The notes below the pieces were generated by a model. It made no database searches and was not told where the DNA came from. It saw nothing but the letters and a program-made list of their open reading frames with translations. From Pantanalinema sp. GBBB05 (GTDB lineage: Bacteria; Cyanobacteriota; Cyanobacteriia; Leptolyngbyales; Leptolyngbyaceae), in assembly GCF_016743235.1 (NCBI RefSeq), contig NZ_VRZD01000005.1, positions 175,622-239,621 on the forward strand: DNA of 64,000 bases, read 5' to 3'. Shown here one piece after another: positions 36,563 to 63,762 of the stretch; the stretch's first letter is position 1, and each line of letters begins with the position of its first letter. A program made the position numbers and the translations under genes.

Positions 36563-39106
36563 CTAAAACTGTAATGAGAATGAACCAATTACAGTCAGTG
36601 GTTCTCCTGGTTGGATGCCACTATCACTCCCAGTCACCGATCGGATGTAATTCGTGTTGCCAATATTACGGATGTTGACTGCAAAGCGGTAGTTATCGCG
36701 GCGATAAAAGATCGCGGCATTACCAATCAAATAATCACCGACCTGAAAGCTATTTGCCAAATCCCCATAGCGATTGCTCACATACTCAAATCCAGCTCCA
36801 AACCCTAACCCCTTTAAGCTACCCTGCTGAATTTCATAGGTTGTCCACAAACTGGCTTTATGTTTTGGAATCCCGAAAAACTCATTATCAATGACAGTTT
36901 CATCTGTATCCTCTGTAACGTTGGCATCAATGTAAGCATACGAGGTAATGATTTTCCAACCGGGTAATATTTCCCCAGCAATATCTAGTTCAATGCCCTG
37001 ACTCTTTTGCTCGCCCACCGCGATCGAAAAAAGCGGATTATCTGGATCAGTCGCCCCAACATTTTTCTTAGTAATGTTAAAGTACGTCAAGGTTGCCAAC
37101 AGTCGTTGGTCAAATAGTTCGGTTTTAACTCCCACCTCAAATCCTTCGCCCTCTTCTGGTTCAAGCACAGAACCACTGGCAGTGAGAGCCGTACTGGGCT
37201 TAAAGGATTGGGAGTAGTTGGCAAACAAAGTTAACTCGGGGATCGGACGATACAGCAAGCCAACACGTGGAGTTAGAGCATCATTGGTTTGTTCAGATTC
37301 ACTTTCATCCGTGAACGCCGTTGCAATATTCGTCACTTTTTGTGTCACTGTGTCGTAGCGCAATCCGGCAACCAGAATCAAATTATCGAGGAGGTAAATC
37401 TGATCTTGGAGGTAGATGCCAAGACGATTCGCTGTAGTGCGGTTGTCACCGAAGGGGGGTAAATCCGCCCGATCGGGTTTGGGAATCAGATCGTAATTTG
37501 GATTAAAGATATTCAGCGGAGTCGGATTGCCAAAGAAAGTTGTAATCCTGGAGTCACTATGGTTCAGATCAATCCCGGCTGTGAGGGTATGTCTGACTGA
37601 TCCAGTAGAGAATTTGCCAACAACATTCGTAAAGAGTGAATAAGAACGATCGGTTCCATCCTGATCCGCATAAAAGCGAATAATGTTATCACCAATAACG
37701 CGAAATGGCAGAGCGATAACGTTGTAATTGTAGTCATAGCTGATATAACGGAAGCTGTTACGAATTTTCCAGTCATCACTAAATCGATGTTCAAAGTTAT
37801 AGCCTGTACTCAAATAGTTCGTTGTCACTGAGTCATCAGGATGATTGGCAACAAACTCTCGTGACACAGGCGCTACACCATCTCCATAGCGAGTCAGCCC
37901 AAAATCCGCAGCACTTTGCTGGCGAATATATTCTAGATTGAAGGTAATATCGGTGCGATCGCCGATTTTCCAAGTTAGCGCTGGAGCCAGTAAGAGGCGA
38001 TTTGTGTCAGAATCAAAATCCCGAAAGGGTTTTTCATGCTGGAATAGTAAGTTTAAGCGATAGAGTAGATCGCCATTGTCCGTTAAAGGACCGGTCACAT
38101 CCAACCGAGGTCGGAGCAACTCCCGATTACCAAGCTGGAATTCTGCTTCCCGAAACGGTTCAGCCAATGGTTGCTTAGAGACTAGATTAATCACACCCCC
38201 TGGCTCAATTTGCCCATACAAAATTGAAGCGGGTCCCTTCAACACCTCAATCTGTTGCAGATTAGCAAGTTCGGGGATCCCCTGAAAGTTGCCATAGAGC
38301 CGATAGCCATCTCTTAGCACGGGTGCACCACTACTCACTTGGTTGCCAAACCCTCGGATACTAAAGGCAGCTTCACGTCCTCCATTCGTTCCTGTCGAAG
38401 ACACACCACTAATATTGGTCAGGGCATCTTCCAGCCGAATTGCCTGCTGATCTCGCAGAACTTCCTGGGGGACAACTTGCACGGAAAAGGGAGTTTCGAG
38501 AATGGGGGTGTCGGTTCCAGTTGCCGTTGAAGCATTGGGAACACGGTATTGACTGGGACGATCGCCCGTGACAATCACTTCCTCTTCCGCTGCTTCTGCA
38601 TCTTCTGGCAGCGTAGCCGTCGGGCTAAGTTGAGATTGCACTACCACCGTTGGAAACTCTGTTTCGCCAGTCACACGAATTTCTAAACGGTTGTTACCAC
38701 TCTGCGTGACAGTAACGGATTGAATCCCTGGAGCAGGAGCAGTTAGCTGAAATTCCTGACGATCGGGCAAGGCTAAGACCGCATTAGCAATTTCAGCAAT
38801 GAATGTCTTGGCTTCACGGCGGGTCGCTTCGGGTTGCAAGATGATATCCTGGTCAGTTTCCAGAATGATTTGAATCCCGCCCTCCGTGGAATTCACACGG
38901 ACACCTGTTACCTGAACGATCGCGGCTGGCTCAGTCTGTGCCAAGAGATCGGCAGCTTGAGTCCGAGGTTGCTCCCGCTCGGTCAACTGAATACCTTGAG
39001 CAGGCTGGTTCGAGAGTCGTTCCTCCTGGGCATCACTGATACCACTGGCACATAAAGCGATCGTTCCTGCTAATCCTACAGCAGTAGCGAGTTGATAACG
39101 TTTCAT
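36563..39106 (-). CDS. TonB-dependent outer-membrane receptor (siderophore-type) with N-terminal extension
   Basis: Signal peptide MKRYQLATAVGLAGTIALCASG; an extra N-terminal beta-rich domain of about 150 aa; plug domain (...VIVTGDR..., ...IEVLKGPASILYGQIEPGGVINLVSK); 22-strand barrel ending in the terminal F (...GSFSLQF). The true start is taken at ATG 39106 rather than the ORF-track start at 39169. Confidence 0.85.
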   Translation of the reverse strand: MKRYQLATAVGLAGTIALCASGISDAQEERLSNQPAQGIQLTEREQPRTQAADLLAQTEPAAIVQVTGVRVNSTEGGIQIILETDQDIILQPEATRREAKTFIAEIANAVLALPDRQEFQLTAPAPGIQSVTVTQSGNNRLEIRVTGETEFPTVVVQSQLSPTATLPEDAEAAEEEVIVTGDRPSQYRVPNASTATGTDTPILETPFSVQVVPQEVLRDQQAIRLEDALTNISGVSSTGTNGGREAAFSIRGFGNQVSSGAPVLRDGYRLYGNFQGIPELANLQQIEVLKGPASILYGQIEPGGVINLVSKQPLAEPFREAEFQLGNRELLRPRLDVTGPLTDNGDLLYRLNLLFQHEKPFRDFDSDTNRLLLAPALTWKIGDRTDITFNLEYIRQQSAADFGLTRYGDGVAPVSREFVANHPDDSVTTNYLSTGYNFEHRFSDDWKIRNSFRYISYDYNYNVIALPFRVIGDNIIRFYADQDGTDRSYSLFTNVVGKFSTGSVRHTLTAGIDLNHSDSRITTFFGNPTPLNIFNPNYDLIPKPDRADLPPFGDNRTTANRLGIYLQDQIYLLDNLILVAGLRYDTVTQKVTNIATAFTDESESEQTNDALTPRVGLLYRPIPELTLFANYSQSFKPSTALTASGSVLEPEEGEGFEVGVKTELFDQRLLATLTYFNITKKNVGATDPDNPLFSIAVGEQKSQGIELDIAGEILPGWKIITSYAYIDANVTEDTDETVIDNEFFGIPKHKASLWTTYEIQQGSLKGLGFGAGFEYVSNRYGDLANSFQVGDYLIGNAAIFYRRDNYRFAVNIRNIGNTNYIRSVTGSDSGIQPGEPLTVIGSFSLQF

Positions 39107-39274
39107 CCCATTCCTCACACAAAATTTAGTCGAATTTGGAAAAGCTTCTATCAGTAATGCAACAAGCACTTCAGTTCAGTCGCAATCTACAGACGTGTTA
39201 TTTCAGCAATACCAACTGAACTTGGCAAAGCTGTTATATCTAATTGCTTTCGACAACTCAAATATTGATCAGTT

Positions 39275-39679
39275 TTACAGTTGTTGTTGAATCCACTGCC
39301 GAGCTGCTGCGCAAGTTATAAACGCCTGACCGGGACAACCAAAAATTGCCGTGATTGTTTTAGCACTACTTCTCTGGCGGTCTGGTGGAATTTCCGGTAG
39401 ATCAATCACTAAGGCTAAACCAACACAGAATTGGCTAATTGCAGCTTTGTGCTGTTTTGCCCACTGCATCGTCAATCGATGGACCGCAGCAATCTGATCA
39501 GGATCGGGTTGACTAGACTCGGGGGCATAAGATTGATGCACAATCACTCCAAACTGATGCTTTTGAGCCAGCCAATGAGCGAACCGAGCTAAATAGGTTT
39601 TGGTATCCGCTAAAGTTGCCACCTGGTCAAATTGAATTGAGACGATCGGATAGGTTTCCTCATGGATCGTAAGCATCAC
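39275..39679 (-). CDS. Hypothetical protein
   Basis: 134-aa ORF between the MFS and receptor genes on the same strand; no motif recognised. Confidence 0.4.
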   Translation of the reverse strand: MMLTIHEETYPIVSIQFDQVATLADTKTYLARFAHWLAQKHQFGVIVHQSYAPESSQPDPDQIAAVHRLTMQWAKQHKAAISQFCVGLALVIDLPEIPPDRQRSSAKTITAIFGCPGQAFITCAAARQWIQQQL

Positions 39680-39687: not shown

Positions 39688-40947
39688 CTAAAGCAGATTC
39701 ACAGTCGAAGAATTAGACAGATAGGAACTGCCTAAATAGCGGGCAATTAACACAACACAAATGCTCATAATCATGGCACTGAGCACAAAAACACCTCGAT
39801 ACCCTAGACCACTTGCCAAAACTCCACTGATGGCAGCAGCAGGTAAACTTCCCATCGTGTTTAAGGAAGCTTGAATGGCATAGTCAGTAGCCGCAGTCTC
39901 TGGATAACTCTTATCCATCATGATGGTAAATGCTGTAGTCACCACCATCCCCAATGAACACGATGTGACTCCCACAATGCTGTACAACACAGATAATTGG
40001 GTCAATCCCAAGGTCGGTACGGCGTAAGTCAACATGCCGATCGCGGAAAGACTACTGGCAATCAGCAGCGTTCGTTGCCGACCTAAAGGTGGAATGAGCA
40101 AGCCAGCCGCGAGCGAACCAAAAATAGTCGAACAGGTTCCCACAATGCCCAGCAACCAACCCACCTCTGCTAAGGACAGTCCCAAATCAATCAGTAATGG
40201 TCGAAACATGGTGATAGAGAGACTATAACCAAAGTTATATAGCAGCAGAATACATAGCCAAACCTTCATGCCAGGGCGTTGGCAGAAGTGCAGGAAAATT
40301 GTGAAATAGTTACGGAGACGATCGCGGATGTTGGCAGAACGATCGTAGGAGTGGTTAACGACAACTTTGGGTTTTTCTTGATGCAATAGCACCGGTATGA
40401 GTGCTACCAGCATTAATCCAGCTAAGGTGAGTAAACTCCCTCTCCAACCCCAACGACTCAGCAATATCAGCATGCCACCGCCGCCGATCATACTCCCTAA
40501 TGAACCACCGACGCTTTGCACAGCGTTACCCAAGCCCCGTTCCTGAGGTTCCAGTAATCCTAAAGCTAAGGCATCTGTAGCAATATCCTGACTGGCACAG
40601 CCGATCGCGATTATCAGCATGCCCATCAGCACGATCGGCAACTGGGTGCTGACACTCAGCAGACTACACAGGGCAGTGACCATCGCGACTACGGATTGCA
40701 GCAAAATAATCCAAAACCGATAGTGTCCCAGAACGGTGAAGCTATAGCGATCGATCAGAGGTGACCAGAGAAACTTGAGCGTGATTGGCAGAACAACCAG
40801 CGGCAATAGCCCAATCGCCGTCAATGACAAGCCTTCTTGACGTAAGACCACCGGCAAAGCCTGATACAAAAATAGAAACGGCATAGATTGTGAGAGGTAC
40901 AAACTGCCGAGTAATCCCAACTTGTTGAAACGCCGAGCCTGAATCAC
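39688..40947 (-). CDS. MFS transporter
   Basis: About 12 TM helices, MFS-type loop motifs (GLLIPPLGRQRTLL; ...DRYSFTVLGHYRFW...). Confidence 0.75.
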   Translation of the reverse strand: MIQARRFNKLGLLGSLYLSQSMPFLFLYQALPVVLRQEGLSLTAIGLLPLVVLPITLKFLWSPLIDRYSFTVLGHYRFWIILLQSVVAMVTALCSLLSVSTQLPIVLMGMLIIAIGCASQDIATDALALGLLEPQERGLGNAVQSVGGSLGSMIGGGGMLILLSRWGWRGSLLTLAGLMLVALIPVLLHQEKPKVVVNHSYDRSANIRDRLRNYFTIFLHFCQRPGMKVWLCILLLYNFGYSLSITMFRPLLIDLGLSLAEVGWLLGIVGTCSTIFGSLAAGLLIPPLGRQRTLLIASSLSAIGMLTYAVPTLGLTQLSVLYSIVGVTSCSLGMVVTTAFTIMMDKSYPETAATDYAIQASLNTMGSLPAAAISGVLASGLGYRGVFVLSAMIMSICVVLIARYLGSSYLSNSSTVNLL

Positions 40948-41102: not shown

Positions 41103-42215
41103 TCAAACGGAATTTTTCCGCCGTTGCATCAGGTACTCATGCGGTCCCACCCCGAATTGTTTGCGAAATGCGGTATAGAACGAGCTACGGCTGGTATAGC
41201 CCACAGCGGCTGCCACCTGCTTAATTGCCATATCACTCGTTTCTAAGAGTTGCTGCGCCTGTTGCATGCGATCGTGATACAGGCATTCAAATGCTGTCAT
41301 ACCAAATACCTGCCGAAAACCACGCTTCAAGGTGCAATCATTGAGTCCAACCTGGCGGGCTAAAGCTATGAGTGAGGGCGGCTGCTTTAGTTGCTGACGC
41401 AGGATTTCTCGGGCTTGATAGATTTTTTTAGTATCCTCTGCTGATAATATTTTGGCTGAAGCTAGTGGCTGGTTCTGAGCGGCAATTTGCTCCAATCGAA
41501 GAGTAATTAGCTCTAAAGCCTTGCTTTCTAGATACAGTTGCCGAGATATACCTTGATAAGGACAATCGAGCAGTTGATTGAGAATGTTCTGCATGGCAAC
41601 AGTACTTCTGCCGCTGAGAACTGGCTCAAATTCCAGCCAAAGTTCAGCCTCGCCATCTGCTTCAGGCATTGGCTCCGAGCTAGATAACCTAGACAGCTCT
41701 GAATCATGTAGCATTGGCAGAGTCGCTCCTTGTCGATGCAGCAGAGAATTGTCCAAACCACTGCACTCAAGCGGCTCAAAATAACGTTTTGCCAGTTGCC
41801 GCAGGTTGGGGGAAAGCTGTTCCAATAATCCAGAGAAGTAAGATTCTAGCCGGGGAGTCGTCACAAACACTTCGACCCACAGGTGGCGCTGTCCAGACGG
41901 CAACTGGAGCCGTTTGCGATCGCCCAAATGCAGCATAGTTAAATTGCTGCCAGAATTATTTCCAACCAAGCAAAATTCAAACTCCAGAGAAGGACGAAAT
42001 AAAGCCACGTTTTGCTCGATTGCTTGGGTCAGTTCACAATCGACAATCACCAGTGATAAGCCACGGCTTAATTCAATTTCTCGTACAAACCCCTGCCCCA
42101 TAGCCACTGGAATCTGCCAAATTCGATCGCTAAGATCGGCGTGGAATAGCGGCAAGCCTACAGAAGTACTGGGCGTAAATAATTCATTCATCTGATGCAG
42201 AAACAGCGCTGTCAT
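41103..42215 (-). CDS. AraC-family transcriptional regulator with N-terminal effector domain (YbtA/PchR-like architecture)
   Basis: C-terminal dual HTH (...LIALARQVGLNDCTLKRGFRQVFGMTAFECL...VAAAVGYTSRSSFYTAFRKQFGVGPHEYL). It is divergently transcribed from the biosynthetic genes. Confidence 0.8.
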   Translation of the reverse strand: MTALFLHQMNELFTPSTSVGLPLFHADLSDRIWQIPVAMGQGFVREIELSRGLSLVIVDCELTQAIEQNVALFRPSLEFEFCLVGNNSGSNLTMLHLGDRKRLQLPSGQRHLWVEVFVTTPRLESYFSGLLEQLSPNLRQLAKRYFEPLECSGLDNSLLHRQGATLPMLHDSELSRLSSSEPMPEADGEAELWLEFEPVLSGRSTVAMQNILNQLLDCPYQGISRQLYLESKALELITLRLEQIAAQNQPLASAKILSAEDTKKIYQAREILRQQLKQPPSLIALARQVGLNDCTLKRGFRQVFGMTAFECLYHDRMQQAQQLLETSDMAIKQVAAAVGYTSRSSFYTAFRKQFGVGPHEYLMQRRKNSV

Positions 42216-42450: not shown

Positions 42451-42720
42451 ATGGGAGGAAATGAAGTGAATCGTTTAACCACGATGGAGACGCTGACAGC
42501 GATTCTGATTGATTTAGGGATTCCAGCCACAGCCCTCCAGGAAGACACCTTACTGCATGGACATTTAGGTTTGGATTCTGTGGAAACTGTCAAGCTGGCT
42601 CTGGAACTAAAACGGAGGCTAGACATCGACATGCCCTTGGGCACTCGTAATGACATGTCATTAGCCGAGATTTGTCAACGGGTAGAAGTAGCTCTATCCA
42701 CTCAATCCTCCGGCTGTTGA
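42451..42720 (+). CDS. Stand-alone acyl/aryl carrier protein
   Basis: About 85-aa acidic protein with the phosphopantetheine-attachment motif GLDSVETVKLALEL. Confidence 0.7.
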   Translation: MGGNEVNRLTTMETLTAILIDLGIPATALQEDTLLHGHLGLDSVETVKLALELKRRLDIDMPLGTRNDMSLAEICQRVEVALSTQSSGC

Positions 42721-42734: not shown

Positions 42735-44318
42735 TTGCCAAAGGAAATTAGCATGGACAGTATTTCTGCACAGTTGCCAGATCACTTTAACGTGGCAGCT
42801 TATTTTCTCGAAAGGAACCTGGCACCGCAACGGGGCGATCGCATTGCCTACTATTATCGAGATCAGTCCTATACCTACACGCAAGTCTCTAGTTGGGTCA
42901 AGCGCACGGCTCACCTACTCGCTGAGTTGGGATTAGAGCGAGAAAATCGTCTGGCGATTCTGTTACCCGATACCCCCGAGTTTGTCTTTACTTTCTGGGG
43001 AGCGATCTGGTCAGGCAATATACCCGTTCCGATTAATACAACTTGCTCTCTGGAAGATATTCAGTATATTTTGCAAGACTGTCGCGCTAAAGTTTTGGTG
43101 ACGACTCAGGCATGGCTAGAGACCTTGTCGCCCATCCAATCCCCGTTTCTCCAGGAAACTCTTTTAATCGACGGGGAACAACCCCTAATCCCATTGTTAG
43201 CCCAACAGCAGGAGCGAGTGGCTTGGGCAGAAACGCATCCAGAAGAACCAGCTTTTTGGCTATATACCTCTGGCAGTACCGGACGACCGAAAGGAGCAAT
43301 TCACCTGCATCAAAGTATGGTGGTCTGTGCAGAACAGTATGGGAAAGCCGTGCTCAACTTACAGGCGGATGACATCCTTTATTCTGTAGCTAAAATGCCT
43401 TTTGCCTACGGGTTAGGCAACACGTTGTATTTTCCCATGGCAGTAGGTGCTGCTGCTGTTCTCTCTGATGCCGCCAATGTATTTGACATCATTGCGGATA
43501 TACAAACCTATCAACCTACAGTCTTCTTTGGCATTCCAGGAATCTATGCTGGCATGCTCTCGGTACAGGAGATTGCCCCACTCAATCCTACTACTTTGCG
43601 GTTATGTGTATCCGCTGCCGAACAACTGCCGAAAACAATTTGGCAGAAGTGGCAACAACAATATGGCATCGAAATTTGTGAGGGTATTGGCACAACTGAA
43701 TTACTGCACATTTTTCTATCAAATCGTCCAGGAGAATGTTGCCCAGGCAGTTCTGGTCGTCCCGTTCCTGGGTATGACGTTGCGGTACTCGATGCTGAGG
43801 GAAACCCCGTTCCGCCCGGTGAAATAGGTGTGCTAGAAGTGCGAGGGGAAAGTTTGATGCTAGGGTACTGGAACCGGTTGTCAGCCACCCGTCAAGCGTT
43901 GTGTGGCACAGCAATGCGGACTGGAGACAAGTATGTCAAAGATCCGGATGGCTATTTTTGGTTCATGGGACGCAATGACGACTGCTTTAAGGTAAATGGG
44001 ATGTGGGTGTCTCCATTTGAAGTAGAGGATGTTTTGCTGCAACATGAAAGCATTCTTGATGTAGCAGTTCTTCCAAGCACGGACAGTGGGGAAACCCTGA
44101 CACAAATAGTGGCTTATATCAGCCTTAAACTAGAATTTGTGCCCTCTACAGATTTAGAGCAACAAATTCGTCAACTCGCAAAGTTACAGTTACCGCACTT
44201 TAAAGCACCAAGTCGCATTCATTTTCTTCCCGCCCTACCACGTACCTCGACGGGCAAAATTCATCGTCAAGCATTACTGCACCAACGGGATCGTGATCCC
44301 GCCAGTGTTGAAATTTGA
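42735..44318 (+). CDS. Aryl-acid--CoA/ACP ligase of the benzoate-CoA ligase family (ANL superfamily)
   Basis: AMP-binding motif LYTSGSTGRPKG, the BCL-family hallmark AKMPFAYGLGN, and the C-terminal lysine region PRTSTGKIHR. Confidence 0.8.
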   Translation: MPKEISMDSISAQLPDHFNVAAYFLERNLAPQRGDRIAYYYRDQSYTYTQVSSWVKRTAHLLAELGLERENRLAILLPDTPEFVFTFWGAIWSGNIPVPINTTCSLEDIQYILQDCRAKVLVTTQAWLETLSPIQSPFLQETLLIDGEQPLIPLLAQQQERVAWAETHPEEPAFWLYTSGSTGRPKGAIHLHQSMVVCAEQYGKAVLNLQADDILYSVAKMPFAYGLGNTLYFPMAVGAAAVLSDAANVFDIIADIQTYQPTVFFGIPGIYAGMLSVQEIAPLNPTTLRLCVSAAEQLPKTIWQKWQQQYGIEICEGIGTTELLHIFLSNRPGECCPGSSGRPVPGYDVAVLDAEGNPVPPGEIGVLEVRGESLMLGYWNRLSATRQALCGTAMRTGDKYVKDPDGYFWFMGRNDDCFKVNGMWVSPFEVEDVLLQHESILDVAVLPSTDSGETLTQIVAYISLKLEFVPSTDLEQQIRQLAKLQLPHFKAPSRIHFLPALPRTSTGKIHRQALLHQRDRDPASVEI

Positions 44319-45664: not shown

Positions 45665-45708
45665 TTCTGAGAGATGTAGTCGTGAATATCAGTCCTTAAT
45701 TGCCTGAT

Positions 45709-45741: not shown

Positions 45742-45834
45742 ATTTCTAGTTTGCATCTTGTCTTGAATCCAGTCGCCCCTAGTAGTCCCCTAAACCACTG
45801 ATCTAGGGGACTTTGAACTGTTCAGCCCATTAGA

Positions 45835-55700: not shown

Positions 55701-57332
55701 ACAGTCGATCAGGATCTTACCTTCACTACTACTCAAGCCCTTGGTTTTTACAGTTTGCTCTACTTAGCGCAAGCACTAGGGCAACAGTCGCTTGCTCATC
55801 CGCTTCATATCAATGTGATTTCTAGCCACAGCCAAGAGATTACTGGTGAAGAAATTTGCCCCGAAAAAGCCACAGTCTTAGGAGCTTGCAAAGTTATTCC
55901 TCAGGAATATGCAACGCTCTCTTGCAGTTTAATTGATGTCGTTATTCCTGACACAGAGCTATCTACTAATGAGACACTGGTTGAGCAACTTATTCACGAA
56001 ATGCTAATCCAGTCTACTCAACCCTCTGATCCAGTGATTGCCTATCGAGGTCGTTATCGTTGGTTGCCGATTTATGAACCCATGCGTCTGGAAGCAGTAC
56101 ATCAGCCCGATCCCTTACGATCGCAGGGCGTATATTTGATTACGGGTGGTTTAGGAGGAATTGGACTCACCATTGCTGAGTATTTGGCAAACACAGTACA
56201 AGCCAAACTTGTTCTAGTGAGCCGTTCAGCGTTGCCACCTCGAAGTGAGTGGGAAGCATGGTTAGCCACTCATCCAGAGTCAGATGCCACCACAGTAAAG
56301 CTGCAAACAATTCAAGGGTTAGAAGCACTCGGTTCAGAGGTATTAATTCTGAAGGCTGATGTGGCAGATCAGCAACAAATGCAAACGGCGATCGAGCAAA
56401 CTCAGCAAAGCTTTGGGCAACTTCATGGCATCTTTCATACGGCTGGTGTACCAGGAAATGGGATTATTCAGCTTAAAACACCTGCAATGGTAGAAGCTGT
56501 TATGGCAGCTAAAGTCCAGGGTACGCTGGTTCTGCATCACGTTTGTCAGAATCTCCCGCTGGATTTTCTGGTACTATTCTCCTCTCATAGCGCGATTTTG
56601 GGTGGTATGGGGCAGGTAGACTACTGTGCCGCCAATAATTTTCTTGATGCATTGGCTGGCTCGCAAATGGCTCAACAACATTACCGGACGATTGCCATCA
56701 ACTGGGATATCTGGCAAGAGATTGGCATGGGTGCAGATCTGACTCAATTACCCGATCGCTTACGACAGGAGCGGTTAGAGAGCCTCAAAACTGGCATTTC
56801 ACCTCAGGAAGGCGTAGAAGCACTGCACCGAATTTTGCATAGTGGATGCAATCAAGTTGTTGTTTCCACCAGAGATTGGCAAGGTGTGCTGCAGCAAGCC
56901 CAGCAACGAACGACCGTCGCAGTAGAGCAAAACTCAATCAATTCACCATCCCTACCATCCAGTTCAACGGAACATTCGCGATCGCTCCAATCCACAACCT
57001 ATATCGCGCCTAGCAATGAGATTGAGCAACGAATAGCGGCGCTCTGGCAAGAACAACTGGGGATTGCCGCTATAGGTGTCCATGACAACTTCTTTGAACT
57101 AGGAGGACACTCGTTGCTAGCGGTGCGGATCATATCGCGATTACGAGAACTATATCCAGTTGAGCTATCACTCCGGGTGTTGCTGTCTGAAGCTCCTACA
57201 GTGGCAGGTTTAGCCCAAGTAATTGCCAAGCAACTTTCCCAACTAGATGATATCGATGAACTCGCGAGAATTCTCGCAGAGATTGAACAGTTGTCTCCAG
57301 AGGCAGTGCAAGCCCAATTAGCTCAAAATTGA
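52713..57332 (+). CDS. Type I PKS module: KS - AT (malonyl-type) - KR - ACP
   Basis: KS GTACSSSLVAVHLA, ETHGTGTALGDPIE, NVGHLDAAAG. AT GHSIGEYVAACLAG with the HAFH specificity motif. KR Rossmann ITGGLGGIGL with catalytic S/Y/N region (SSHSAILGGMGQVDYCAANNF). ACP FFELGGHSLLAVRI. No DH, ER or MT motifs were seen. Confidence 0.9.
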   Translation: MSTNQTGLEIAIVGLAGRFPGGASIDDFWHNLKTGVELVTPFAAQQSVAEEDAKDCHRSQPIVRAGAVLQNVDQFDAAFFGFNPGEAAALDPQHRLFLECAWEALETAGYSSETPDRPIGVFAGVGMGTYLLYNLSPNPGLIESRGFLPTVVGVDKDYLPTRVSYKLNLTGPSVSVGTACSSSLVAVHLACQSLLSGECDLALAAGVAVKVPQDGHTLSPDEIVSPDGHCRAFDANANGTVGGNGIGVVVLKRLEDAIADRDHIYAVIKGSAINNDGAMKVSYTAPSQEGQAKVIRAAHLMADVEPETITYLETHGTGTALGDPIEVAAMTQAFRMATDRTGFCAIGSVKTNVGHLDAAAGITGLIKTVLALYYRQIPPSINFETPNTQIDFANSPFYVNAQLRDWHTQGMPRRAGVSSFGFGGTNVHLVLEEAPVGVAEDTIPPQQRPYQLLTLSAKTPTALAQATVNLHDRLQQSPELDLADVAYTLQVGRWELPYRRIVVAQTLDDAVQRLAGAQSLPVDTAHPHSIDPPVIFMFPGQGSQAVNMARQLYEHEPTFRAECDRCFALLQTKHNLDLRAVLYPDRADDSQPLTQTAIAQPALFVVEYALAKLWMAWGVQPRSLIGHSIGEYVAACLAGVFTLEDALSLVTVRAQLMQQQPPGAMLAVHLSADAVQPFLSDSLSLAANNSPNLCVISGATAAIAQLEDQLTAQGIDCRRLHTSHAFHSPMMAAVIEPLVQYLHDIRLHPPQIPIISNLTGKWLTIEEATDPHYWAQHLRQTVQFAPGIAELLLQADAIFLEVGPGRTLATLAKHQASDRVILTSLSHHQEAVEDGQSLLHTLGRLWLSGVPIHWANFYTHQSRHRVPLPTYPFERQRYWIDPPQSSPITTTTLSKRPDIADWFYSPSWKRSALPPIAVSDSTRCWVVFVDRSGLATALIQRLQHQGDRAIQVQAGEEFSQSHPDGYTINPSDRSHYDALIQAILASEPTPILAHLWTVDQDLTFTTTQALGFYSLLYLAQALGQQSLAHPLHINVISSHSQEITGEEICPEKATVLGACKVIPQEYATLSCSLIDVVIPDTELSTNETLVEQLIHEMLIQSTQPSDPVIAYRGRYRWLPIYEPMRLEAVHQPDPLRSQGVYLITGGLGGIGLTIAEYLANTVQAKLVLVSRSALPPRSEWEAWLATHPESDATTVKLQTIQGLEALGSEVLILKADVADQQQMQTAIEQTQQSFGQLHGIFHTAGVPGNGIIQLKTPAMVEAVMAAKVQGTLVLHHVCQNLPLDFLVLFSSHSAILGGMGQVDYCAANNFLDALAGSQMAQQHYRTIAINWDIWQEIGMGADLTQLPDRLRQERLESLKTGISPQEGVEALHRILHSGCNQVVVSTRDWQGVLQQAQQRTTVAVEQNSINSPSLPSSSTEHSRSLQSTTYIAPSNEIEQRIAALWQEQLGIAAIGVHDNFFELGGHSLLAVRIISRLRELYPVELSLRVLLSEAPTVAGLAQVIAKQLSQLDDIDELARILAEIEQLSPEAVQAQLAQN

Positions 57333-57404: not shown

Positions 57405-58475
57405 ATGAAATTCAGTCTATTCTATTTTTCTGGTGATGGTTCTACAACTGATCACAACAAGTACCGCCTATTAATCGAAGGGGCTAAGTTTGCCGATCGT
57501 CACGGGTTTGCCGGAGTTTGGATTCCTGAACGACATTTTGACGCTTTTGGCGGACTTTATCCCAATCCTGCTGTGGCTGGAGCCGCGATCGCGATGCTCA
57601 CGGAGCATATCCAAATCCGTTCTGGCAGTGTGGTGATGCCTCTACAACATCCATTGCGAGTGGCTGAAGAATGGGCAATGGTGGATAACCTATCGCAAGG
57701 TCGGGTCAGTCTTTCGTTTGCTCCAGGCTGGCATCCTCATGACTTTGTTCTGTATCCCGAAAATTACGCCAACAAAAAAGATATTATGTGGCGCGATATC
57801 CAAGTGGTGCAGCGACTCTGGCAGGGTGAGGCGATCGAGCTGACGGGAGGAAATGGCAAATTAGCCCAGATTCGGACGTTTCCGAGACCCTTGCAAACCC
57901 GCCTCCCCATTTGGATTACCGCTCTCTCAGACGATACCTTTGTGGAAGCAGGCAGAATTGGCGCACATATCCTGACGTCACCGCTGTATCAAAGTGTGGA
58001 TGAGATTTTTCGAAAAATCACCTTATATCGTCGATCGCGGGCACAGCATGGTCATGATCCCCAAAGCGGTCAGGTGGCATTGATGATTCATACCTTCCTG
58101 GGCAGTGATATCCAGGTTGTGAAAGCCCAGGTCAAATCACCCTTCAAAAATTATCTGAAAACTCATTTTGATTTAGTCGTCAAATCAGCAGGGGATCTAC
58201 GATTTTCGATCGATCCTCATACGCTCACACCTCAAGACCTGGATGATTTATTAGAGTTCAGTTTTGAGACTTACTTCAATGGCAAAGTACTGATGGGCAC
58301 TCCCGATCATTGCCAAACACTGATCAGCTATTTTCAACAAGCTGGAGTGAATGAAATTGCCGCTTTGATTGACTTTGGGATTGAATTCGATGATGTGATG
58401 GCAAGTTTAAATTTGCTGAAAGACATGAATCGCGATTCCCATCAAACTCGATCTTTACAAGCTTCCTGTTCTTGA
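57405..58475 (+). CDS. Luciferase-like monooxygenase (LLM) family flavin-dependent oxidoreductase
   Basis: Typical LLM N-terminus MKFSLFYFSGDG...RLLIEGAKFADRHGFAGVWIPERHF. Confidence 0.8.
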   Translation: MKFSLFYFSGDGSTTDHNKYRLLIEGAKFADRHGFAGVWIPERHFDAFGGLYPNPAVAGAAIAMLTEHIQIRSGSVVMPLQHPLRVAEEWAMVDNLSQGRVSLSFAPGWHPHDFVLYPENYANKKDIMWRDIQVVQRLWQGEAIELTGGNGKLAQIRTFPRPLQTRLPIWITALSDDTFVEAGRIGAHILTSPLYQSVDEIFRKITLYRRSRAQHGHDPQSGQVALMIHTFLGSDIQVVKAQVKSPFKNYLKTHFDLVVKSAGDLRFSIDPHTLTPQDLDDLLEFSFETYFNGKVLMGTPDHCQTLISYFQQAGVNEIAALIDFGIEFDDVMASLNLLKDMNRDSHQTRSLQASCS

Positions 58476-58491: not shown

Positions 58492-61400
58492 ATGCACAAC
58501 CTATCTGAACGAATTGCCGCTCTGACCCCGGAGCAACAAGCCTTATTGCAACAGCGAGTTACCCAAAAGGCATCGCCAGTATCCCATACCTGGGTCATTC
58601 CAAAACGTCCAGCTACATCCACTCATCTACCAGTCTCATTTGCGCAACAGCGGATGTGGTTTCAAGATCAGTTGGGTCGTAACAGTGCTGTTTCTAACAA
58701 TATTACAATTTCATTGCAAATTTCAGGTGCTCTGCAGGTGAGTGCTTTAGAACAAAGTTTGAAAGCAATTCTGCAACGCCATGAAGTTCTGCGTACCACC
58801 TTGCATGTTGTCGCGGGTGAACTGACACAAGTGATTAATGCGATCGACGACTGGCAACTCGCGATCGTCGATCTACAAACGCTAACCAAAGCTCAACAGG
58901 CGGCTGAGGTTCAGCAATTGGCAACAGAACAGGCGTGTCAGCCCTTCAACTTAGAAACGGATAAATTATTGCGGCTCACCCTACTAAAACTGCATGCCAC
59001 TGAACATACCCTGCTCTTGGTTCTGCATCACAGCGCTGGCGATGCCTGGTCGATCGGAATTTTTTTCCGAGAACTAAGTGCGTTGTATGCCGCATTTGCA
59101 GCGGGTCAACCGTTGCCTTTAGCTCCATTACCTATTCAATACGCTGATTTTACGGTGTGGCAGCGGCAAACGTTACAAGGTGATCTGCTGGCAACGGATC
59201 TGGCGTATTGGCAGCAAAAATTGAACCAGTCACCGGATTTATTACGTCTCCCCAGCGATCACCCTCGTCCGGCGATGCAGTCGTTTACGGGAAAAACCCT
59301 CTCCTTTCTGCTACCCAAACCGCTGACTGAGTCACTCAAGGCATTGTCGCAACAAGCCGAAGCGACATTATTTATGACACTGCTAGCCGCCTTACAAACG
59401 TTACTCTTCCGATATACCAATCAGGACGATATTTTAGTCGGTACACCGATCGCGAATCGACAGCAACCTGAAATTGAACCATTAATTGGATGTTTTATTA
59501 ATACGTTGGTATTGCGCACTCACTTATCAGGCAATCCTAGTTTTCAAACTCTACTACAACAGGTACGCACTACAGTTCTGGAAGCCTTAGCCCATCAAAC
59601 GCTACCGTTTGAAAAATTAGTAGATGAGTTACAGGTCGCTCGGAATTTAACTTACGCGCCGCTATTCCAGGTCATGCTGGTGCTGCAAAATGCCTTTTCA
59701 GTACAAAATATTGAACTACCAGGATTACAGGTAGAGCACGAACGGATTGACAATTACACCGCTCAATTTGATCTCACCTTTCATCTGGTTGAGTCAAATC
59801 ACGGCTTAATTGGCAAGCTGGAATACAATACTGATTTATTTGATCAATCGACGATCGAGCGGTTGATCGGACATTTCCAGACTTTATTAACTAGCATCGT
59901 CGCTCATCCTGATCAACGTCTGGCTGAACTAGCGCTTTTAACGCCAGCAGAACAACTTCAGTTATCCAGCTGGCAGCAAATTACGACCCATGACTCCGCC
60001 CCAAGCTGTATTCATCACCTATTTGAGGCACAAGTTCAGAAAACACCCGCCGCGATTGCTGTGGTGCAGGGAGATCAGCAAATTACCTATCAAGAACTCG
60101 ATCGCTGTGCCAATCAATTAGCTCACTACCTCCAGAGAATTGGCGTTCAGCCAGAGTCGTTAGTGGGTCTCTGTGTCGATCGCTCCATTGCCATGATCAT
60201 TGGACTATTGGGCATTCTGAAAGCGGGCGGGGCATATGTCCCTCTTGATCCGAGCTATCCCACCCAGCGTCTGGAGTTAATTCTGACCGATGCTCAGGTG
60301 TCTGTCCTGTTAACTCAGCAATCCCTTGCGGCTCAACTACCTGAACTGACTACCCCAACGGTTTGTCTTGATACCGATTGGTCACAGATTGCCCTGGAAC
60401 GGTCTGAGTCCGTTGCATCTCCAGTTCATCCCCATCACCTGGCATACATTATTTATACCTCTGGTTCCACTGGCAAACCGAAGGGGGTAATGATCGAACA
60501 CCAGTCGCTCGTCAACTTGACTGAAGCGGCTCTGGCTGAATACGGTGTGTGTGTTAGCGATCGAGTTTTACAATTTGCCTCAATTAGTTTTGATGCCGCA
60601 GCGGAAGAAATCTTTCCCTGTTTAGCACAAGGGGCAACGCTGGTATTGCGAACTGATCCAATGCTCAGTTCAATGGCAATGTTTTTACAAGCGTGTGCTG
60701 ACTGGCAACTAACAGTTCTAGATTTACCAACCGCCTTTTGGCATCAACTCGTAACTGAAATGGTAACCCAGAATTTAGAGTTACCCAATTCTGTGCGGTT
60801 AGTGATTCTGGGTGGTGAAAAGGCTTTGTTCGATCGCTTACTCCTCTGGCAACAACGGGTAGATGCCTCTGTGCGCTTGGTGAATAGTTATGGTCCGACT
60901 GAAGCAACGATCGTCACAACTACGATGGATTTATCGCAACTGCCACCCACGGTATGGACTGAACAATTCGTTCCCATTGGTAAACCCATTCAAAATGCCA
61001 GTATTTATGTGCTGGATGCCAATTTACAACCTGTGCCGATTGGCATTCCAGGCGAACTCTATATTGGTGGTGCTGGGGTTGCCCGAGGATACCTGAACCG
61101 CCCCGACCTCACAGCAATGACATTTATTCCCAATCCGTTTCATCCCCAAACCGGAGCACGACTCTATAAAACCGGCGATCGCGGGCGCTATCGAGCCGAT
61201 GGTAGCCTGGAATTTCTGGGACGGATCGATGATCAGGTGAAAATCCGTGGCTTTCGGATTGAATTGGGCGAAATTGAGGCACTGCTAGCTCAACATCTTG
61301 CTATACAGGAATGTGTGGTGATCGCTCACGAAGAGGTGACTGGCGATCAGCGCCTGATTGCCTATGTTGTGCCTACTCCCGGCGACAAACTGACTCAACC

Positions 61401-63189
61401 ACAACTGCGGCAGTTCCTCGAACCGCGACTACCAAAATATATGCTGCCAACGGCATTTGTCATCCTGCCAGCCCTGCCACTTAATGCTAATGGTAAGGTC
61501 GATCGCCAGCGATTACCGGCTCCAGAGTTAACCCGATCGGAGGTTACAGCCCCTTTCATTGCACCCAGAACGCCTACAGAAGCAGAGGTTGCCCAAACGT
61601 TTGCTGAGGTTTTAAATCTGGAGTCCGTAGGGATAGAAGATGATTTCTTTGAGTTAGGCGGGCATTCCTTACTCGCAACCAAGTTATTAGCCCGGTTGCT
61701 TGCCGTGTTTCCAGTCACACTCTCGATCGTGGATCTGTTTCAATTACCCACAGTAGCTGGTTTAGCAACTCGAATCGACCAACAGCTTCTGCAAGCGTCA
61801 TTCGCCATTGAGAAAACGGTCATTCACTCGTCTTTGCGGCGTATGGCTAGAACACCAGCGACACCAATTCCTCTCTCGTTTTCGCAGCAATACATTTGGC
61901 GGATCCATGAAGCGAGTCAAACAGGAACAACACTGAATAGCTCGATCGTGGTGCGGATTACGCGATCGCTAACTCCAACAGTCATGGAACAAAGCTGGAA
62001 TGAGTTAGTACGTCGTCACGAAATTTTGCGTACCGTCTTCAAGCTAGTCGATGGGCAACCAATGCAATTTGTTTTACCAACGTTGCACCTGCCCCTGATT
62101 TATGCCGATCTGCAATCCTACCCCCTGGCAGAACGTGAATCCATCGCCTTTAACCAGGCGATCGCACTCGCCCAACGCCCCTTTGATCTGACCACGGCTC
62201 CATTGCTACGCCCAGCATTGTGGCAACTCTCGTCTCAAGAATATTGGTTATTGATTACCATGCATCACCTCATCACTGATGGTTGGTCATTTGGTCTGTT
62301 ATTACAGGAGTTAGATACTCTCATCCAAGCCTTTTCTCAAGAGCAACCTTCTCCCCTCCCCGAGGTAGCTCTGCAATACGCAGACTTTGCGATGTGGCAG
62401 CAGCAGGAATATGACGCCGCAACGATCGCCCAGCAACTTCACTATTGGCAACACAAGCTCACCAGTGAATCCCAACAATCCGCCACCTCCTTTCTGGCTC
62501 AACCTGTGTCTAGTCAGCAAGCTGCCCATTATTTCACCCAACTATCAGACAACCTTGCCAGTCGGGTCGAGTTCTTGAGTCGGACATTAGGAGTCACCAG
62601 TTTTGCAGTTTTACTAGCTGCCCTCAAACTGGCGCTGGCAGCATGGAGTGGACAGCAAGACATCTGGATTGTCACCACAGTCGGTAATCGGACAATCCCT
62701 GGCACAGAACATATGCTGGGCTGTTTCATTAATGATGTGATTTTGCGATCGCACTTACTACCCGAACAGACCGCAACTACATTGATCCAACGCTTACAGG
62801 GCGACATCCAGGAGGCAATTGACCATAAGGATGTCCCTTTAGATCAGGTGATTCAGCACACCCAAGATTTATGCCCCTACAAGCTGATGGCAAGCATTAC
62901 CATTACATCATCGACTCAAAACATAGCCCAAACACCTGGTTGGGAAGTGGTTGAGGTGCAGACCAAACAGCAGCAGTTACATGACATGACATCCGAGTTA
63001 TTTACTAATGATATCCCACTCGAAATTTATGTTGAAGTATCGACCTCGATCGGAGTGATTGTGAATTACAGCACCCAACTGTTGACCACAGAAATGGTCG
63101 ATCGGTTATTTACACTCTACCAGAACATCCTCACCGCTCTCTTGGCTCGCCCTGCAAGTCAGTTGAATGAACTCTTGCACCTGACATGA
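58492..63189 (+). CDS. NRPS module: C - A - PCP - terminal C domain (no TE)
   Basis: C1 HHSAGDAWS, A domain LAYIIYTSGSTGKPKGV / FDAAAEE / NSYGPTEATIVTT / YKTGDRGRY / GRIDDQVKIRGFRIELGEIE, PCP FFELGGHSLLATKL, second condensation-type domain HHLITDGWS. The ORF ends without a GxSxG thioesterase. Confidence 0.9.
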   Translation: MHNLSERIAALTPEQQALLQQRVTQKASPVSHTWVIPKRPATSTHLPVSFAQQRMWFQDQLGRNSAVSNNITISLQISGALQVSALEQSLKAILQRHEVLRTTLHVVAGELTQVINAIDDWQLAIVDLQTLTKAQQAAEVQQLATEQACQPFNLETDKLLRLTLLKLHATEHTLLLVLHHSAGDAWSIGIFFRELSALYAAFAAGQPLPLAPLPIQYADFTVWQRQTLQGDLLATDLAYWQQKLNQSPDLLRLPSDHPRPAMQSFTGKTLSFLLPKPLTESLKALSQQAEATLFMTLLAALQTLLFRYTNQDDILVGTPIANRQQPEIEPLIGCFINTLVLRTHLSGNPSFQTLLQQVRTTVLEALAHQTLPFEKLVDELQVARNLTYAPLFQVMLVLQNAFSVQNIELPGLQVEHERIDNYTAQFDLTFHLVESNHGLIGKLEYNTDLFDQSTIERLIGHFQTLLTSIVAHPDQRLAELALLTPAEQLQLSSWQQITTHDSAPSCIHHLFEAQVQKTPAAIAVVQGDQQITYQELDRCANQLAHYLQRIGVQPESLVGLCVDRSIAMIIGLLGILKAGGAYVPLDPSYPTQRLELILTDAQVSVLLTQQSLAAQLPELTTPTVCLDTDWSQIALERSESVASPVHPHHLAYIIYTSGSTGKPKGVMIEHQSLVNLTEAALAEYGVCVSDRVLQFASISFDAAAEEIFPCLAQGATLVLRTDPMLSSMAMFLQACADWQLTVLDLPTAFWHQLVTEMVTQNLELPNSVRLVILGGEKALFDRLLLWQQRVDASVRLVNSYGPTEATIVTTTMDLSQLPPTVWTEQFVPIGKPIQNASIYVLDANLQPVPIGIPGELYIGGAGVARGYLNRPDLTAMTFIPNPFHPQTGARLYKTGDRGRYRADGSLEFLGRIDDQVKIRGFRIELGEIEALLAQHLAIQECVVIAHEEVTGDQRLIAYVVPTPGDKLTQPQLRQFLEPRLPKYMLPTAFVILPALPLNANGKVDRQRLPAPELTRSEVTAPFIAPRTPTEAEVAQTFAEVLNLESVGIEDDFFELGGHSLLATKLLARLLAVFPVTLSIVDLFQLPTVAGLATRIDQQLLQASFAIEKTVIHSSLRRMARTPATPIPLSFSQQYIWRIHEASQTGTTLNSSIVVRITRSLTPTVMEQSWNELVRRHEILRTVFKLVDGQPMQFVLPTLHLPLIYADLQSYPLAERESIAFNQAIALAQRPFDLTTAPLLRPALWQLSSQEYWLLITMHHLITDGWSFGLLLQELDTLIQAFSQEQPSPLPEVALQYADFAMWQQQEYDAATIAQQLHYWQHKLTSESQQSATSFLAQPVSSQQAAHYFTQLSDNLASRVEFLSRTLGVTSFAVLLAALKLALAAWSGQQDIWIVTTVGNRTIPGTEHMLGCFINDVILRSHLLPEQTATTLIQRLQGDIQEAIDHKDVPLDQVIQHTQDLCPYKLMASITITSSTQNIAQTPGWEVVEVQTKQQQLHDMTSELFTNDIPLEIYVEVSTSIGVIVNYSTQLLTTEMVDRLFTLYQNILTALLARPASQLNELLHLT

Positions 63190-63273
63190 ACATCCTTGTT
63201 CTGTGAGGTTATAGACTAGGTCCAACCACCTTCGTTGTTAATCGTTGTCTGAGGAGAACTGGTTTGGAGCTGT

Positions 63274-63762
63274 ATGGGATTCCGATTTAGAGACTACACG
63301 ACTTGTCTATCTGAGTTTGAGTCAACCATCTGGGTGCTGTGCCCCCGTTGTCAGCATCCCGTGCTCTCTCGTTGTCTGGATGAACGGCTGACTTGGCGCA
63401 TTGCCTGCCCTCACTGTAGCTATACCCGGACAGCCTCCCGAGCCGCTAAACGACAACAACCGATGCCGTGGTGGAAAGGAACCTGGTGGACAGCATATCG
63501 CCAATCGGGTGGTGCGATCGACCCGCTATTCGGACTGCCCCTGTGGTTACAAGTCCCCTGCTGTGGACAAGTCTTATGGGTCTATAACGCAGCCCATCTG
63601 GACTTTCTGGAAACGTATGTTAGTGCCATGATTCGGGAACGCCAGGGCAGTAAAGGTAATCATCATGGGATTGCTGTTCGCTTACCCCGCTGGATGAAGC
63701 TAGCCCACCATCGTACCGCGATTCTTAAGGGTATCCAACAGTTACGGGAGCGATTGCATTAG
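63274..63762 (+). CDS. Hypothetical Cys-rich (zinc-ribbon-like) protein
   Basis: CPRCQHP...CPHCSY and CCGQ motifs; 162 aa; immediately downstream of the NRPS. Confidence 0.4.
   Translation: MGFRFRDYTTCLSEFESTIWVLCPRCQHPVLSRCLDERLTWRIACPHCSYTRTASRAAKRQQPMPWWKGTWWTAYRQSGGAIDPLFGLPLWLQVPCCGQVLWVYNAAHLDFLETYVSAMIRERQGSKGNHHGIAVRLPRWMKLAHHRTAILKGIQQLRERLH

Follow-up and report, generated by a model that had tools for sequence, protein, structure and literature searches.

The locus studied here raises two questions: which pathway is encoded by a hybrid nonribosomal peptide synthetase-polyketide synthase (NRPS-PKS) gene cluster in the cyanobacterium Pantanalinema sp. GBBB05, and whether its loading genes and its ending set it apart from pathways already described. 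The cluster lies in a 64-kb stretch of contig NZ_VRZD01000005.1 (positions 175,622 to 239,621 of the forward strand), called the window below and numbered from its first base. Gene and domain calls, taken from the listing of open reading frames (ORFs) and from Pfam and NCBIfam scans of the window, point to an intact, uncharacterised cluster among the NRPS-PKS metallophores of cyanobacteria with a salicylate cap and a thiazoline, a family that includes the anachelin candidate, fatuamide, leptochelin and lusichelin clusters; this is a reading to which we assign a probability of roughly 0.7. A preliminary description of this DNA had proposed metallophore-type logic resembling that of yersiniabactin and pyochelin, in a pathway of a distinct and undescribed type. 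The logic is borne out by the presence of salicylate synthase, a heterocyclization (Cy) module for cysteine, a PKS, a TonB receptor, major facilitator superfamily (MFS) proteins and an AraC regulator, and all 12 genes and domains named in that description were recovered where it had placed them; the claim of a new pathway type did not survive comparison with the literature. The features of the locus are as follows.

36563-39169, minus strand: TonB-dependent siderophore receptor with AMIN, Plug and beta-barrel domains (PF00593, PF07715, PF11741; TIGR01783 at 426 bits, cut-off 223)
39275-39679, minus strand: small protein of 134 residues with a STAS/SpoIIAA-like fold, between the receptor and the MFS importer; no Pfam or NCBIfam match of its own
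39688-40947, minus strand: MFS permease of the AmpG or RhtX-FptX type (PF07690; TIGR00901 at 218 bits and TIGR02718 at 177 bits, both below cut-off)
41103-42215, minus strand: AraC-family regulator (PF12833 and PF00165 at residues 285-362, a C-terminal helix-turn-helix)
42451-42720, plus strand: free-standing acyl carrier protein (ACP) (PF00550, E = 1.2e-5; serine in the motif GLDSV)
42735-44318, plus strand: aryl acid ligase of the benzoate-CoA ligase (BCL) family (TIGR02262 at 497 bits, cut-off 375)
44315-45664, plus strand: chorismate-binding enzyme, salicylate synthase of the MbtI/Irp9 type (TIGR03494 at 322.7 bits, cut-off 325.2)
45706-45744, no strand: near-perfect hairpin with an 18-bp stem and a 3-nt loop, found by a scan for terminator-like sequences and inspection of the sequence, in the gap where the salicylate synthase and MFS genes converge
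45835-47127, minus strand: MFS protein of the EntS/Mef type, H+ antiporter family (PF07690, PF05977; TIGR00900 at 140 bits and EntS at 51 bits, both below cut-off)
47427-49034, plus strand: ketoacyl synthase III (KASIII)-carrier fusion (PF08545, PF08541, PF00550)
49201-52695, plus strand: NRPS with a TubC_N dock (49222-49374), Cy (49447-50712), adenylation (A; 50836-52293) and peptidyl carrier protein (PCP; 52378-52578) domains (Pfam)
52713-57332, plus strand: PKS with ketosynthase (KS; 52737-53864), acyltransferase (AT; 54315-55142), ketoreductase (KR; 56127-56720) and ACP (57027-57224) domains (Pfam)
57405-58475, plus strand: discrete luciferase-like flavin monooxygenase (LLM) of the MupA/Atu3671 family (TIGR04020 at 474.6 bits, cut-off 244.45)
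58492-63189, plus strand: last NRPS with condensation (C; 58621-59964), A (60022-61497), PCP (61585-61776) and terminal C (about 61864-63186) domains (Pfam)
63274-63762, plus strand: Cys-rich hypothetical ORF of 162 residues (CPRC...CPHC, zinc-ribbon-like); no family match

The genes for the KASIII-carrier fusion, Cy-A-PCP, PKS, LLM and C-A-PCP-C form one long operon. The ACP, ligase and salicylate synthase genes are divergent from the AraC gene, and the EntS/Mef-like MFS gene is convergent to the salicylate synthase gene, with the hairpin between them probably serving as a bidirectional terminator. Every architecture-level feature of the cyanobacterial salicylate-capped family is present in this arrangement: salicylate synthase, BCL-family ligase and free carrier protein are adjacent, a KASIII-carrier gene stands just upstream of the Cy module, as it also does in loci L085, L086 and L087, and the first NRPS module opens with a TubC_N docking domain rather than an aryl carrier protein (ArCP), giving the order dock-Cy-A-PCP. 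Inspection of the motifs, all of them intact, supports active assembly-line domains. The Cy domain carries DLLVFDAWS (DxxxxDxxS) at residue 213, the KS has TACSS and HGTGT, and the AT has the GHSIG and HAFH motifs of malonyl-type domains. The NADPH motif GGLGGIG and the Ser/Tyr/Asn residues are present in the KR, carrier serines are found in all carrier domains, and the two C domains of the last NRPS read HHSAGDA and, at the terminus, HHLITDG, both conforming to HHxxxD(G/A). The A code of the Cy module is DLYNIGIIWK (DLYNIGLIWK in relatives), which agrees at 7 of 10 positions, with conservative changes at the other three, with what we take to be the cysteine code, DLYNLSLIWK; we infer that this domain activates Cys.

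The starter-unit genes point to salicylate. Among solved structures, the chorismate enzyme ranks MbtI and Irp9 (E = 1e-62 to 1e-57) ahead of TrpE (1e-45), and its HKAILSR and SPE motifs align with those of the MbtI homologue 8qij. These are the motifs that, on our understanding of MbtI, hold the water-activating catalytic Lys and the general-acid Glu. The preliminary calls of a Cy domain and a chorismate enzyme, on which the proposed architecture depended, are upheld by this ranking and by the DLLVFDAWS motif. The ligase, the only free one present, belongs to the BCL family and not to the aryl-AMP ligases of the DhbE/YbtE/PchD type; its best solved relatives are the anthranilate-CoA ligase 4wv3 (2.6e-111) and then the benzoate-CoA ligases 2v7b and 4eat, and it is predicted to activate salicylate. 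An anthranilate starter, suggested by the structure nearest to the ligase, was considered and rejected, since TrpE falls far behind the salicylate synthases among the relatives of the chorismate enzyme, which also retains the Lys motif HKAILSR, and since related characterised products carry a 2-hydroxyphenyl group. Orthologues of the free ACP have 76 residues and are 63-66% identical to it; the start of the window ACP may be Met12.

The same loading genes have been reported for characterised or candidate pathways of other cyanobacteria. In the fat cluster of Leptolyngbya sp., published in 2025, FatB is an ACP, FatD a benzoate-CoA-ligase family protein, FatE a salicylate synthase, FatG a KASIII protein (1524 nt, about 507 residues) and FatH a Cy-A(Cys)-P protein, and the cluster ends with FatP (KS-AT-KR-PCP) followed by FatQ (C-A-P-C) (PMC11877528). 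The description of fatuamide includes a condensed thiazoline-salicylate unit, and two routes have been proposed for its release, one by the additional C domain and one by FatA, a type II thioesterase (PMC11877528). The window cluster and fat thus match in the loading set and in the KS-AT-KR / C-A-P-C ending, with a TonB receptor and an MFS gene nearby in both. They differ in that seven additional modules (three reducing PKS, two Phe NRPS and two KR-type PKS) separate FatH from FatP, and fat also has a type II thioesterase, a phosphopantetheinyl transferase (PPTase), a TauD dioxygenase and Gly as its last residue, with no LLM mentioned (PMC11877528), whereas the window has only one PKS module, its LLM is discrete and its last residue is of the Lys/Orn type. 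A candidate cluster for anachelin in Anabaena cylindrica PCC 7122, published in 2014, likewise combines a KSIII-ACP protein ('KACP'), SalS, a salicyl CoA/PCP ligase ('CoAL'), Cy-A-T and KS-AT-KR-ACP modules, and in the anachelin model Sal directly precedes the Ser-derived Atha unit (PMC4247773). Common to it and the window are the loading set and a siderophore receptor within the cluster. The anachelin line alone has a Ser-activating Cy module, two PKS modules for Atha, three further amino acids, the Dmaq pathway and a reductase; the window cluster is far shorter, and a thiazoline is predicted for it. For leptochelin, too, a benzoate-CoA ligase is described as part of a salicylate cassette, and a KASIII gene is listed in the neighbourhood of its cluster (PMC11240249).

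With pyochelin and yersiniabactin, the window cluster has in common chorismate-derived salicylate, a Cy domain with a Cys-type A domain, an AraC regulator, a TonB receptor and an FptX-like MFS protein, and with yersiniabactin also a malonyl-extending PKS with a KR. The resemblance extends to salicylate synthesis and to the Cy/Cys module; the aryl-AMP ligase with its ArCP and the reductase and thioesterase (TE) are missing. On the side of uptake, the receptor passes TIGR01783, the MFS protein scores below cut-off for RhtX/FptX, and the AraC protein has no specific match. The cluster lacks the YbtE/PchD ligase, an embedded ArCP, a second or third Cys module, a methyltransferase (MT), a thiazolinyl reductase and a TE, and has in addition the KASIII-carrier fusion, the LLM, a basic last residue and the terminal C domain. 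The scans of the window bear out the absences listed in the preliminary description (YbtE/DhbE ligase, embedded ArCP, MT, dehydratase (DH), TE, thiazolinyl reductase, MbtH): Pfam and NCBIfam found no MT, DH, TE, thiazolinyl reductase or PPTase in any ORF of the window, and neither family scans nor a six-frame motif scan of the window gave an MbtH.

In the papers on fatuamide, leptochelin (PMC11240249) and lusichelin, the KASIII-carrier fusion is given no role. Its true start is probably Met21, at position 47487. A search of the protein database gave at least 690 homologues of the fusion with E<=1e-10; the best 120 are 49-73% identical, and every one of these with a named organism is cyanobacterial. 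We aligned the window protein and these 120 homologues to an E. coli FabH sequence that agrees in its key motifs with HMMER alignments to solved FabH structures. The nucleophilic Cys112, Asn274 and the carrier Ser are invariant in all 121 sequences, whereas the triad His244 is replaced by Asn and Asn247 by Thr, again in 121 of 121. The window protein and all 120 homologues thus have Cys-Asn-Asn in place of the Cys-His-Asn triad of condensing KASIII enzymes such as FabH and PqsD. In FabH-type enzymes, His244 together with Asn274 drives malonyl decarboxylation. Its invariant loss argues for a non-condensing but conserved function, and the KASIII domain is probably an aryl-transfer shuttle rather than a condensing enzyme. 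The shuttle is favoured further by fatuamide and anachelin, since in their descriptions no extra C2 unit separates the aryl group from the unit that follows, although both clusters contain the KASIII gene. KASIII-like acyltransferases that move acyl or aryl groups without Claisen condensation reportedly include ChlB3 and ChlB6 (chlorothricin), CerJ and PtmR, and ChlB3 is said to transfer a salicylate-type acyl group between carrier proteins. Use of the FabH fold as an acyl mover would be common to these proteins and the window fusion, and the lack of a fused carrier in the former is a difference.

The loading genes also occur apart from the remainder of the window cluster. In Fischerella GCA_002870675 (locus L087, 4628-21213), salicylate synthase, KASIII-carrier and a docked Cy-A-PCP block stand before a different assembly line, so that, judged by gene content, the salicyl-azoline loading cassette is a reusable cyanobacterial starter. 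That locus also has a PPTase, a flavin halogenase of the tryptophan-halogenase type and a Cy-methyltransferase module after the starter block, and would be a halogenated pyochelin/yersiniabactin-like variant.

The LLM gene lies between the PKS and NRPS genes, and its product scores above the cut-off of the natural-product family TIGR04020. By far its nearest solved structure is PuwE 6KET (E = 1.1e-105), presumably the PuwE monooxygenase domain (362 residues, full-length match). LLM domains in the microginin and palmerolide clusters have been tied to alpha-hydroxyls, and the monooxygenase domain of PuwE, between PKS and NRPS modules, is likewise credited with 2-hydroxylation of a PKS-derived acyl unit (PMC4219810). 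A luciferase-like monooxygenase between PKS and NRPS modules is thus common to both systems; in PuwE it forms part of a single KS-AT-ACP-aminotransferase-Ox-C-A-PCP polypeptide and acts on a beta-amino fatty acyl substrate, whereas in the window it is a separate protein whose substrate would be a beta-hydroxy acyl chain. A genome scan seeded with the window LLM gave at least 80 LLM-anchored loci. Across the 80 listed, a KS..KR module directly upstream recurs, and it is found in all of the closest of these loci with enough upstream sequence, whereas the A-domain code downstream varies (Ser-, Asn-, Gly- and Lys/Orn-like). This constancy upstream and variation downstream argue that the substrate is the ACP-bound polyketide unit and not an amino acid, and the LLM probably alpha-hydroxylates that unit to a 2,3-dihydroxy unit. 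LLM homologues 47-60% identical to that of the window stand beside PKS/NRPS genes in Acidobacteriota, Gemmatimonadota, Myxococcota, Chloroflexota and others (loci L005-L080), and a cassette of PKS-KR followed by LLM seems to be a widespread unit.

Where the assembly line ends was judged from orthologous clusters, as the window itself stops at base 64000. In P. rosaneae CENA516 the whole set from the receptor to C-A-PCP-C is found in identical order at 65-89% amino-acid identity. GCA_002939305 (annotated Chroococcid...) and a contig of Chroogloeocystis siderophila have the ACP, ligase, salicylate synthase, MFS, KASIII-carrier, Cy-A-PCP, PKS, LLM and C-A-PCP-C genes at 60-82% identity, and the cluster in GCA_002939305 has an extra gene for a periplasmic siderophore-binding protein. 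The C-terminated core is therefore common to four genomes of two orders. The genes after the last NRPS are unrelated and differ among genomes: one has a Lin0512-family gene and DnaJ/WD40, a second has an RND efflux pump, and the window has the Cys-rich ORF; this ORF has no counterpart in any related cluster compared and is probably outside the pathway. In two further relatives a thioester reductase closes the core: in Chlorogloeopsis sp. ULAP02 (L001, 14461-15846) it is a separate protein that carries a TubC_N dock, and in Baaleninema simplex PCC 7105 (L002, 11239-15786) it is fused. The preliminary description had allowed that a continuation beyond the window might change the product; the three related genomes that end at the same C-A-PCP-C, and the two that end in a reductase, speak against such a continuation. 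Because the shared end is followed by unrelated genes and a reductase occupies the same position in relatives, we take C-A-PCP-C as the last module and its C domain as the off-loading device; by this comparison, the cluster is complete at the terminal C domain in its Pantanalinema/Chroococcidiopsis form.

The terminal domain has the motifs SFSQQYIW, RHEILRTVF, HHLITDGWS and YADFAMW, with C1, C2, C4 and C5 motifs present besides HHLITDG, is 75% and 61% identical in two orthologues and keeps HHxxxDG in them. With these genuine C motifs and with the cluster ending there in related genomes, the suggestion that a C-terminal C domain releases the product stands. An assignment as an epimerization domain was rejected, as the C1-C3 motifs are of the C type and the epimerization motifs are absent. 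Its solved-structure matches are generic elongation C domains, and a homologue search with it returned mostly fragments and resolved no dedicated release clade. Mycobactin (MbtE/F) is an aryl-capped metabolite with a Lys end that a C-like terminal domain releases as a lactam, and myxochelin (MxcG) has a terminal reductase. Both types of ending occur in the present cluster family, the homology being at the generic level of NRPS domains only, and no lysine N-hydroxylase was found in the window cluster. As a separate observation, L001 and L002 compared with the window type represent a natural swap of C and reductase release domains within one cluster family. In Pseudanabaena sp. BC1403 (L084, 11290-14447), the last NRPS is a 782-residue C...PCP protein without a recognisable AMP-binding core, and an OFeT_1 (iron permease-like) gene stands between the LLM gene and the gene for this protein; by its appearance, this copy of the cluster is in decay or has been rearranged.

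The last residue is provisionally of the Lys/Orn type, and Lys-like. The A code DAEDIGSIVK is found in the window and two orthologues (conserved in loci L081 and L083), with DTEDIGSVVK in Baaleninema (L002) and the Orn-like DVGELVSIDK in Chlorogloeopsis (L001). The acidic residues at positions 239 and 278 argue for a basic substrate; we take D-x-E-D-x-G-[ST]-[IV]-V-K to be a Lys-type code and DVGELVSIDK to be near the classical Orn code.

These assignments can be ordered into a pathway. The MbtI/Irp9-type synthase, placed in this family by sequence, would convert chorismate into salicylate, which the BCL-type enzyme would activate and load onto the free ACP or CoA. The Cys of the KASIII domain would take the salicyl group and hand it to its own fused carrier, and the C-terminal tail of the fusion presumably docks on the TubC_N domain of the Cy module. 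Cy-A(Cys)-PCP would form a 2-hydroxyphenyl-thiazoline, to which KS-AT(malonyl)-KR-ACP would add a C2 unit and reduce it to the beta-hydroxyl; the LLM would then hydroxylate the alpha carbon of the ACP-bound unit, and C-A-PCP would add a Lys-like basic amino acid. Finally, the terminal C domain would release the chain, most plausibly as a lactam by attack of the side-chain amine, as proposed for mycobactin. Alternatively, the chain may be transferred to a free amine, as happens for anguibactin or vibriobactin; no amine-forming gene is found in the cluster. From the reductase-ended relatives one would instead expect, as for myxochelin, an amino-aldehyde, imine or alcohol. For the window cluster we predict salicyl-thiazoline-CH(OH)-CH(OH)-CO-NH-Lys, as a lactam or amide, with computed [M+H]+ values of 412.1537 (linear) and 394.1431 (lactam), or 396.1588 and 378.1482 without the 2-hydroxyl. 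The aryl-thiazoline-hydroxyacyl-aminoacyl outline proposed in the preliminary description is retained here; that proposal had included neither the Lys/Orn-type residue nor the alpha-hydroxylation that the LLM probably carries out, and its option of a thiazole is set aside because no thiazole-forming oxidase is found in the cluster. For the short subfamily as a whole (two Pantanalinema species, Chroococcidiopsis/Chroogloeocystis and the reductase-ended Chlorogloeopsis and Baaleninema), we propose only tentatively, at slightly less than even odds, that it makes an undescribed metallophore, 2-hydroxyphenyl-thiazoline-(2,3-dihydroxy)propanoyl-Lys/Orn in lactam, amide or reduced form, by way of a KASIII-carrier gatekeeper and on-line hydroxylation by the discrete LLM.

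For transport, the EntS/Mef-like MFS protein, kept at the matching position in loci L085 and L086, is predicted to be the exporter; the TonB receptor, with orthologues 82% identical in P. rosaneae and 49% in GCA_002939305, is predicted to be the outer-membrane importer of the metal complex, and the AmpG/FptX-like MFS protein the inner-membrane importer. The AraC protein, whose orthologue in P. rosaneae is 65% identical, would control the divergent operons. Its helix-turn-helix is confirmed, whereas the effector domain ascribed to it earlier is not, as the N-terminal part of about 250 residues matches no family; no match specific to PchR or YbtA, or to an NCBIfam equivalog, was obtained. The 134-residue protein encoded between the receptor and the importer is 76% identical and syntenic in P. 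rosaneae, and has 64 representative homologues. Pfam SpoIIAA-like is matched by 15 of the 46 aligned homologues, and Trp129, Cys85 and Cys115 are among the near-invariant residues. Its AlphaFold2 model has a mean confidence (pLDDT) of 95 and resembles, weakly (E 0.01-0.05, TM-score about 0.5), the folds of SLC26 STAS, SpoIIAA, RsbS and DUF3478.

Several points weigh against the picture drawn so far. The likeness to the fat, lec, lus and anachelin clusters rests on published gene tables and domain strings. TIGR03494, although the best model for the chorismate enzyme, scores 322.7 bits against a cut-off of 325.2, and the shuttle model does not account for two separate carriers, the free ACP and the KASIII-fused one. 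Neither LDD nor Trp, the stereochemistry motifs, is present in the KR. The assignment of the last A code to Lys is provisional, and a text search of the literature for both A-domain codes returned nothing. As to iron control, no 19-mer in the window matches the E. coli Fur consensus at 14 or more of 19 positions; matches at 13/19 number nine and are dispersed through the window, with none in a promoter region of the cluster. No convincing motif common to the four promoter regions emerged either, as they share one 14-mer, compared with 2.2 expected by chance. Production of lusichelin, finally, is reported to be unresponsive to iron limitation. Since characterised cyanobacterial relatives also bind copper and lusichelin is not iron-responsive, 'metallophore' is a safer word for the product than 'siderophore'.

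How well does a family member with a complete assembly line fare against other explanations of the same genes? The suggestion that the loading set and the C-domain termination define a distinct, undescribed type of metallophore pathway draws on real differences from pyochelin and yersiniabactin and on the searchable literature, in which we found no product for the short subfamily. It is nevertheless very unlikely, because the loading cassette has been published for the anachelin candidate (PMC4247773) and fatuamide (PMC11877528), with elements for leptochelin (PMC11240249), because fat also has KS-AT-KR-PCP followed by C-A-P-C, and because the KASIII-carrier fusion has its at least 690 homologues and the block recurs in Fischerella. 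We likewise give little credence to an incomplete line, in which the terminal C domain would pass the chain to an NRPS encoded elsewhere or the cluster would be the remnant of a longer, fatuamide-like one. The ordinary elongation motifs and relatives of that domain and the lack of a TE in the window would fit such a reading, but four genomes of two orders stop at the same C domain amid unrelated flanks, two relatives have a reductase there, the motifs are intact and the proteins 60-89% conserved, and the decayed copy in Pseudanabaena looks unlike the window cluster. Within the starter unit, it is highly improbable that the KASIII domain truly condenses salicyl-CoA with malonyl on its own carrier and feeds a salicyl-acetyl chain into the Cy domain. 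Its FabH-like fold and Cys, PqsD among its solved relatives and the nearness of the ligase to aryl-CoA ligases are all compatible with condensation; set against them are the change of the triad His to Asn and of Asn247 to Thr in every sequence compared (the His being the residue needed for malonyl decarboxylation), the lack of a C2 insert in fatuamide and anachelin, both of which have the gene, and the lack of a malonyl-loading AT to accompany the carrier.

The LLM and the metal leave more room for doubt. The LLM might act on the amino-acid unit, by alpha-hydroxylation or by N-oxygenation of Lys/Orn to a hydroxamate, or on the thiazoline. Its gene lies directly upstream of the last NRPS gene, no separate N-hydroxylase gene was found in the cluster, a hydroxamate would be a strong iron ligand, and domains of the TIGR04020 family (MtaG-type) are said to hydroxylate PCP-bound glycine in myxothiazol. 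We regard this as unlikely, given that PuwE, the nearest relative, is credited with C-2 hydroxylation of a PKS unit, and that across the listed loci the KS..KR module recurs while the downstream A codes vary. A greater, though still minor, chance must be granted to a product that serves chiefly in another role than iron acquisition, as a copper or zinc metallophore, a detoxifier or a cytotoxin, like its characterised relatives in cyanobacteria. Fe(III) is classically bound by phenolate-thiazoline ligands, the receptor passes the TonB siderophore model, and the cluster in GCA_002939305 adds a periplasmic siderophore-binding protein, all of which argue for iron; on the other side, lusichelins bind copper and are not induced by iron limitation, no Fur-box-like site was found in the window, and leptochelin has been linked to copper tolerance (PMC11240249).

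Outside the cluster, two tandem CrcB (fluoride channel) genes (35478-36319, plus strand) stand directly to its left, with no fluoride riboswitch detected by Rfam, and a hybrid histidine kinase gene is also found at this flank; tRNA and Rfam scans of the window returned nothing at gathering score. At 19017-21993 (minus strand), a SIR2-family protein is encoded beside a 667-residue protein with HEAT repeats and a NACHT C-terminal Cys/His domain, a pairing that recalls anti-phage defence gene pairs. Two overlapping ORFs of 185 and 182 residues at 28670-29757 (minus strand), the downstream one matching only the C-terminal part of PhyH (profile 74-212), may be a frameshifted or split dioxygenase gene.

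In summary, the loading machinery of this locus is standard for cyanobacterial metallophores, and the understanding of siderophore biosynthesis is unchanged by it. As far as the searchable literature shows, neither the product of this short and conserved subfamily nor the biochemistry of two enzymes in it has been described. If our tentative proposal for the subfamily is true, aryl transfer by the KASIII-carrier fusion and hydroxylation of a beta-hydroxyacyl unit by a discrete LLM would be steps without earlier biochemical demonstration. Few cyanobacterial metallophores are known; those that our searches gave are three salicyl-thiazoline families, the leptochelins, fatuamide and lusichelins, and also anachelin, cyanochelins, schizokinen and synechobactins. 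The cluster is among the shortest versions of this assembly logic and is conserved in at least two orders, which makes it tractable for finding a new small chelator, for defining the role of a widespread KASIII-carrier fusion and for studying on-line alpha-hydroxylation by a stand-alone PuwE-type LLM.

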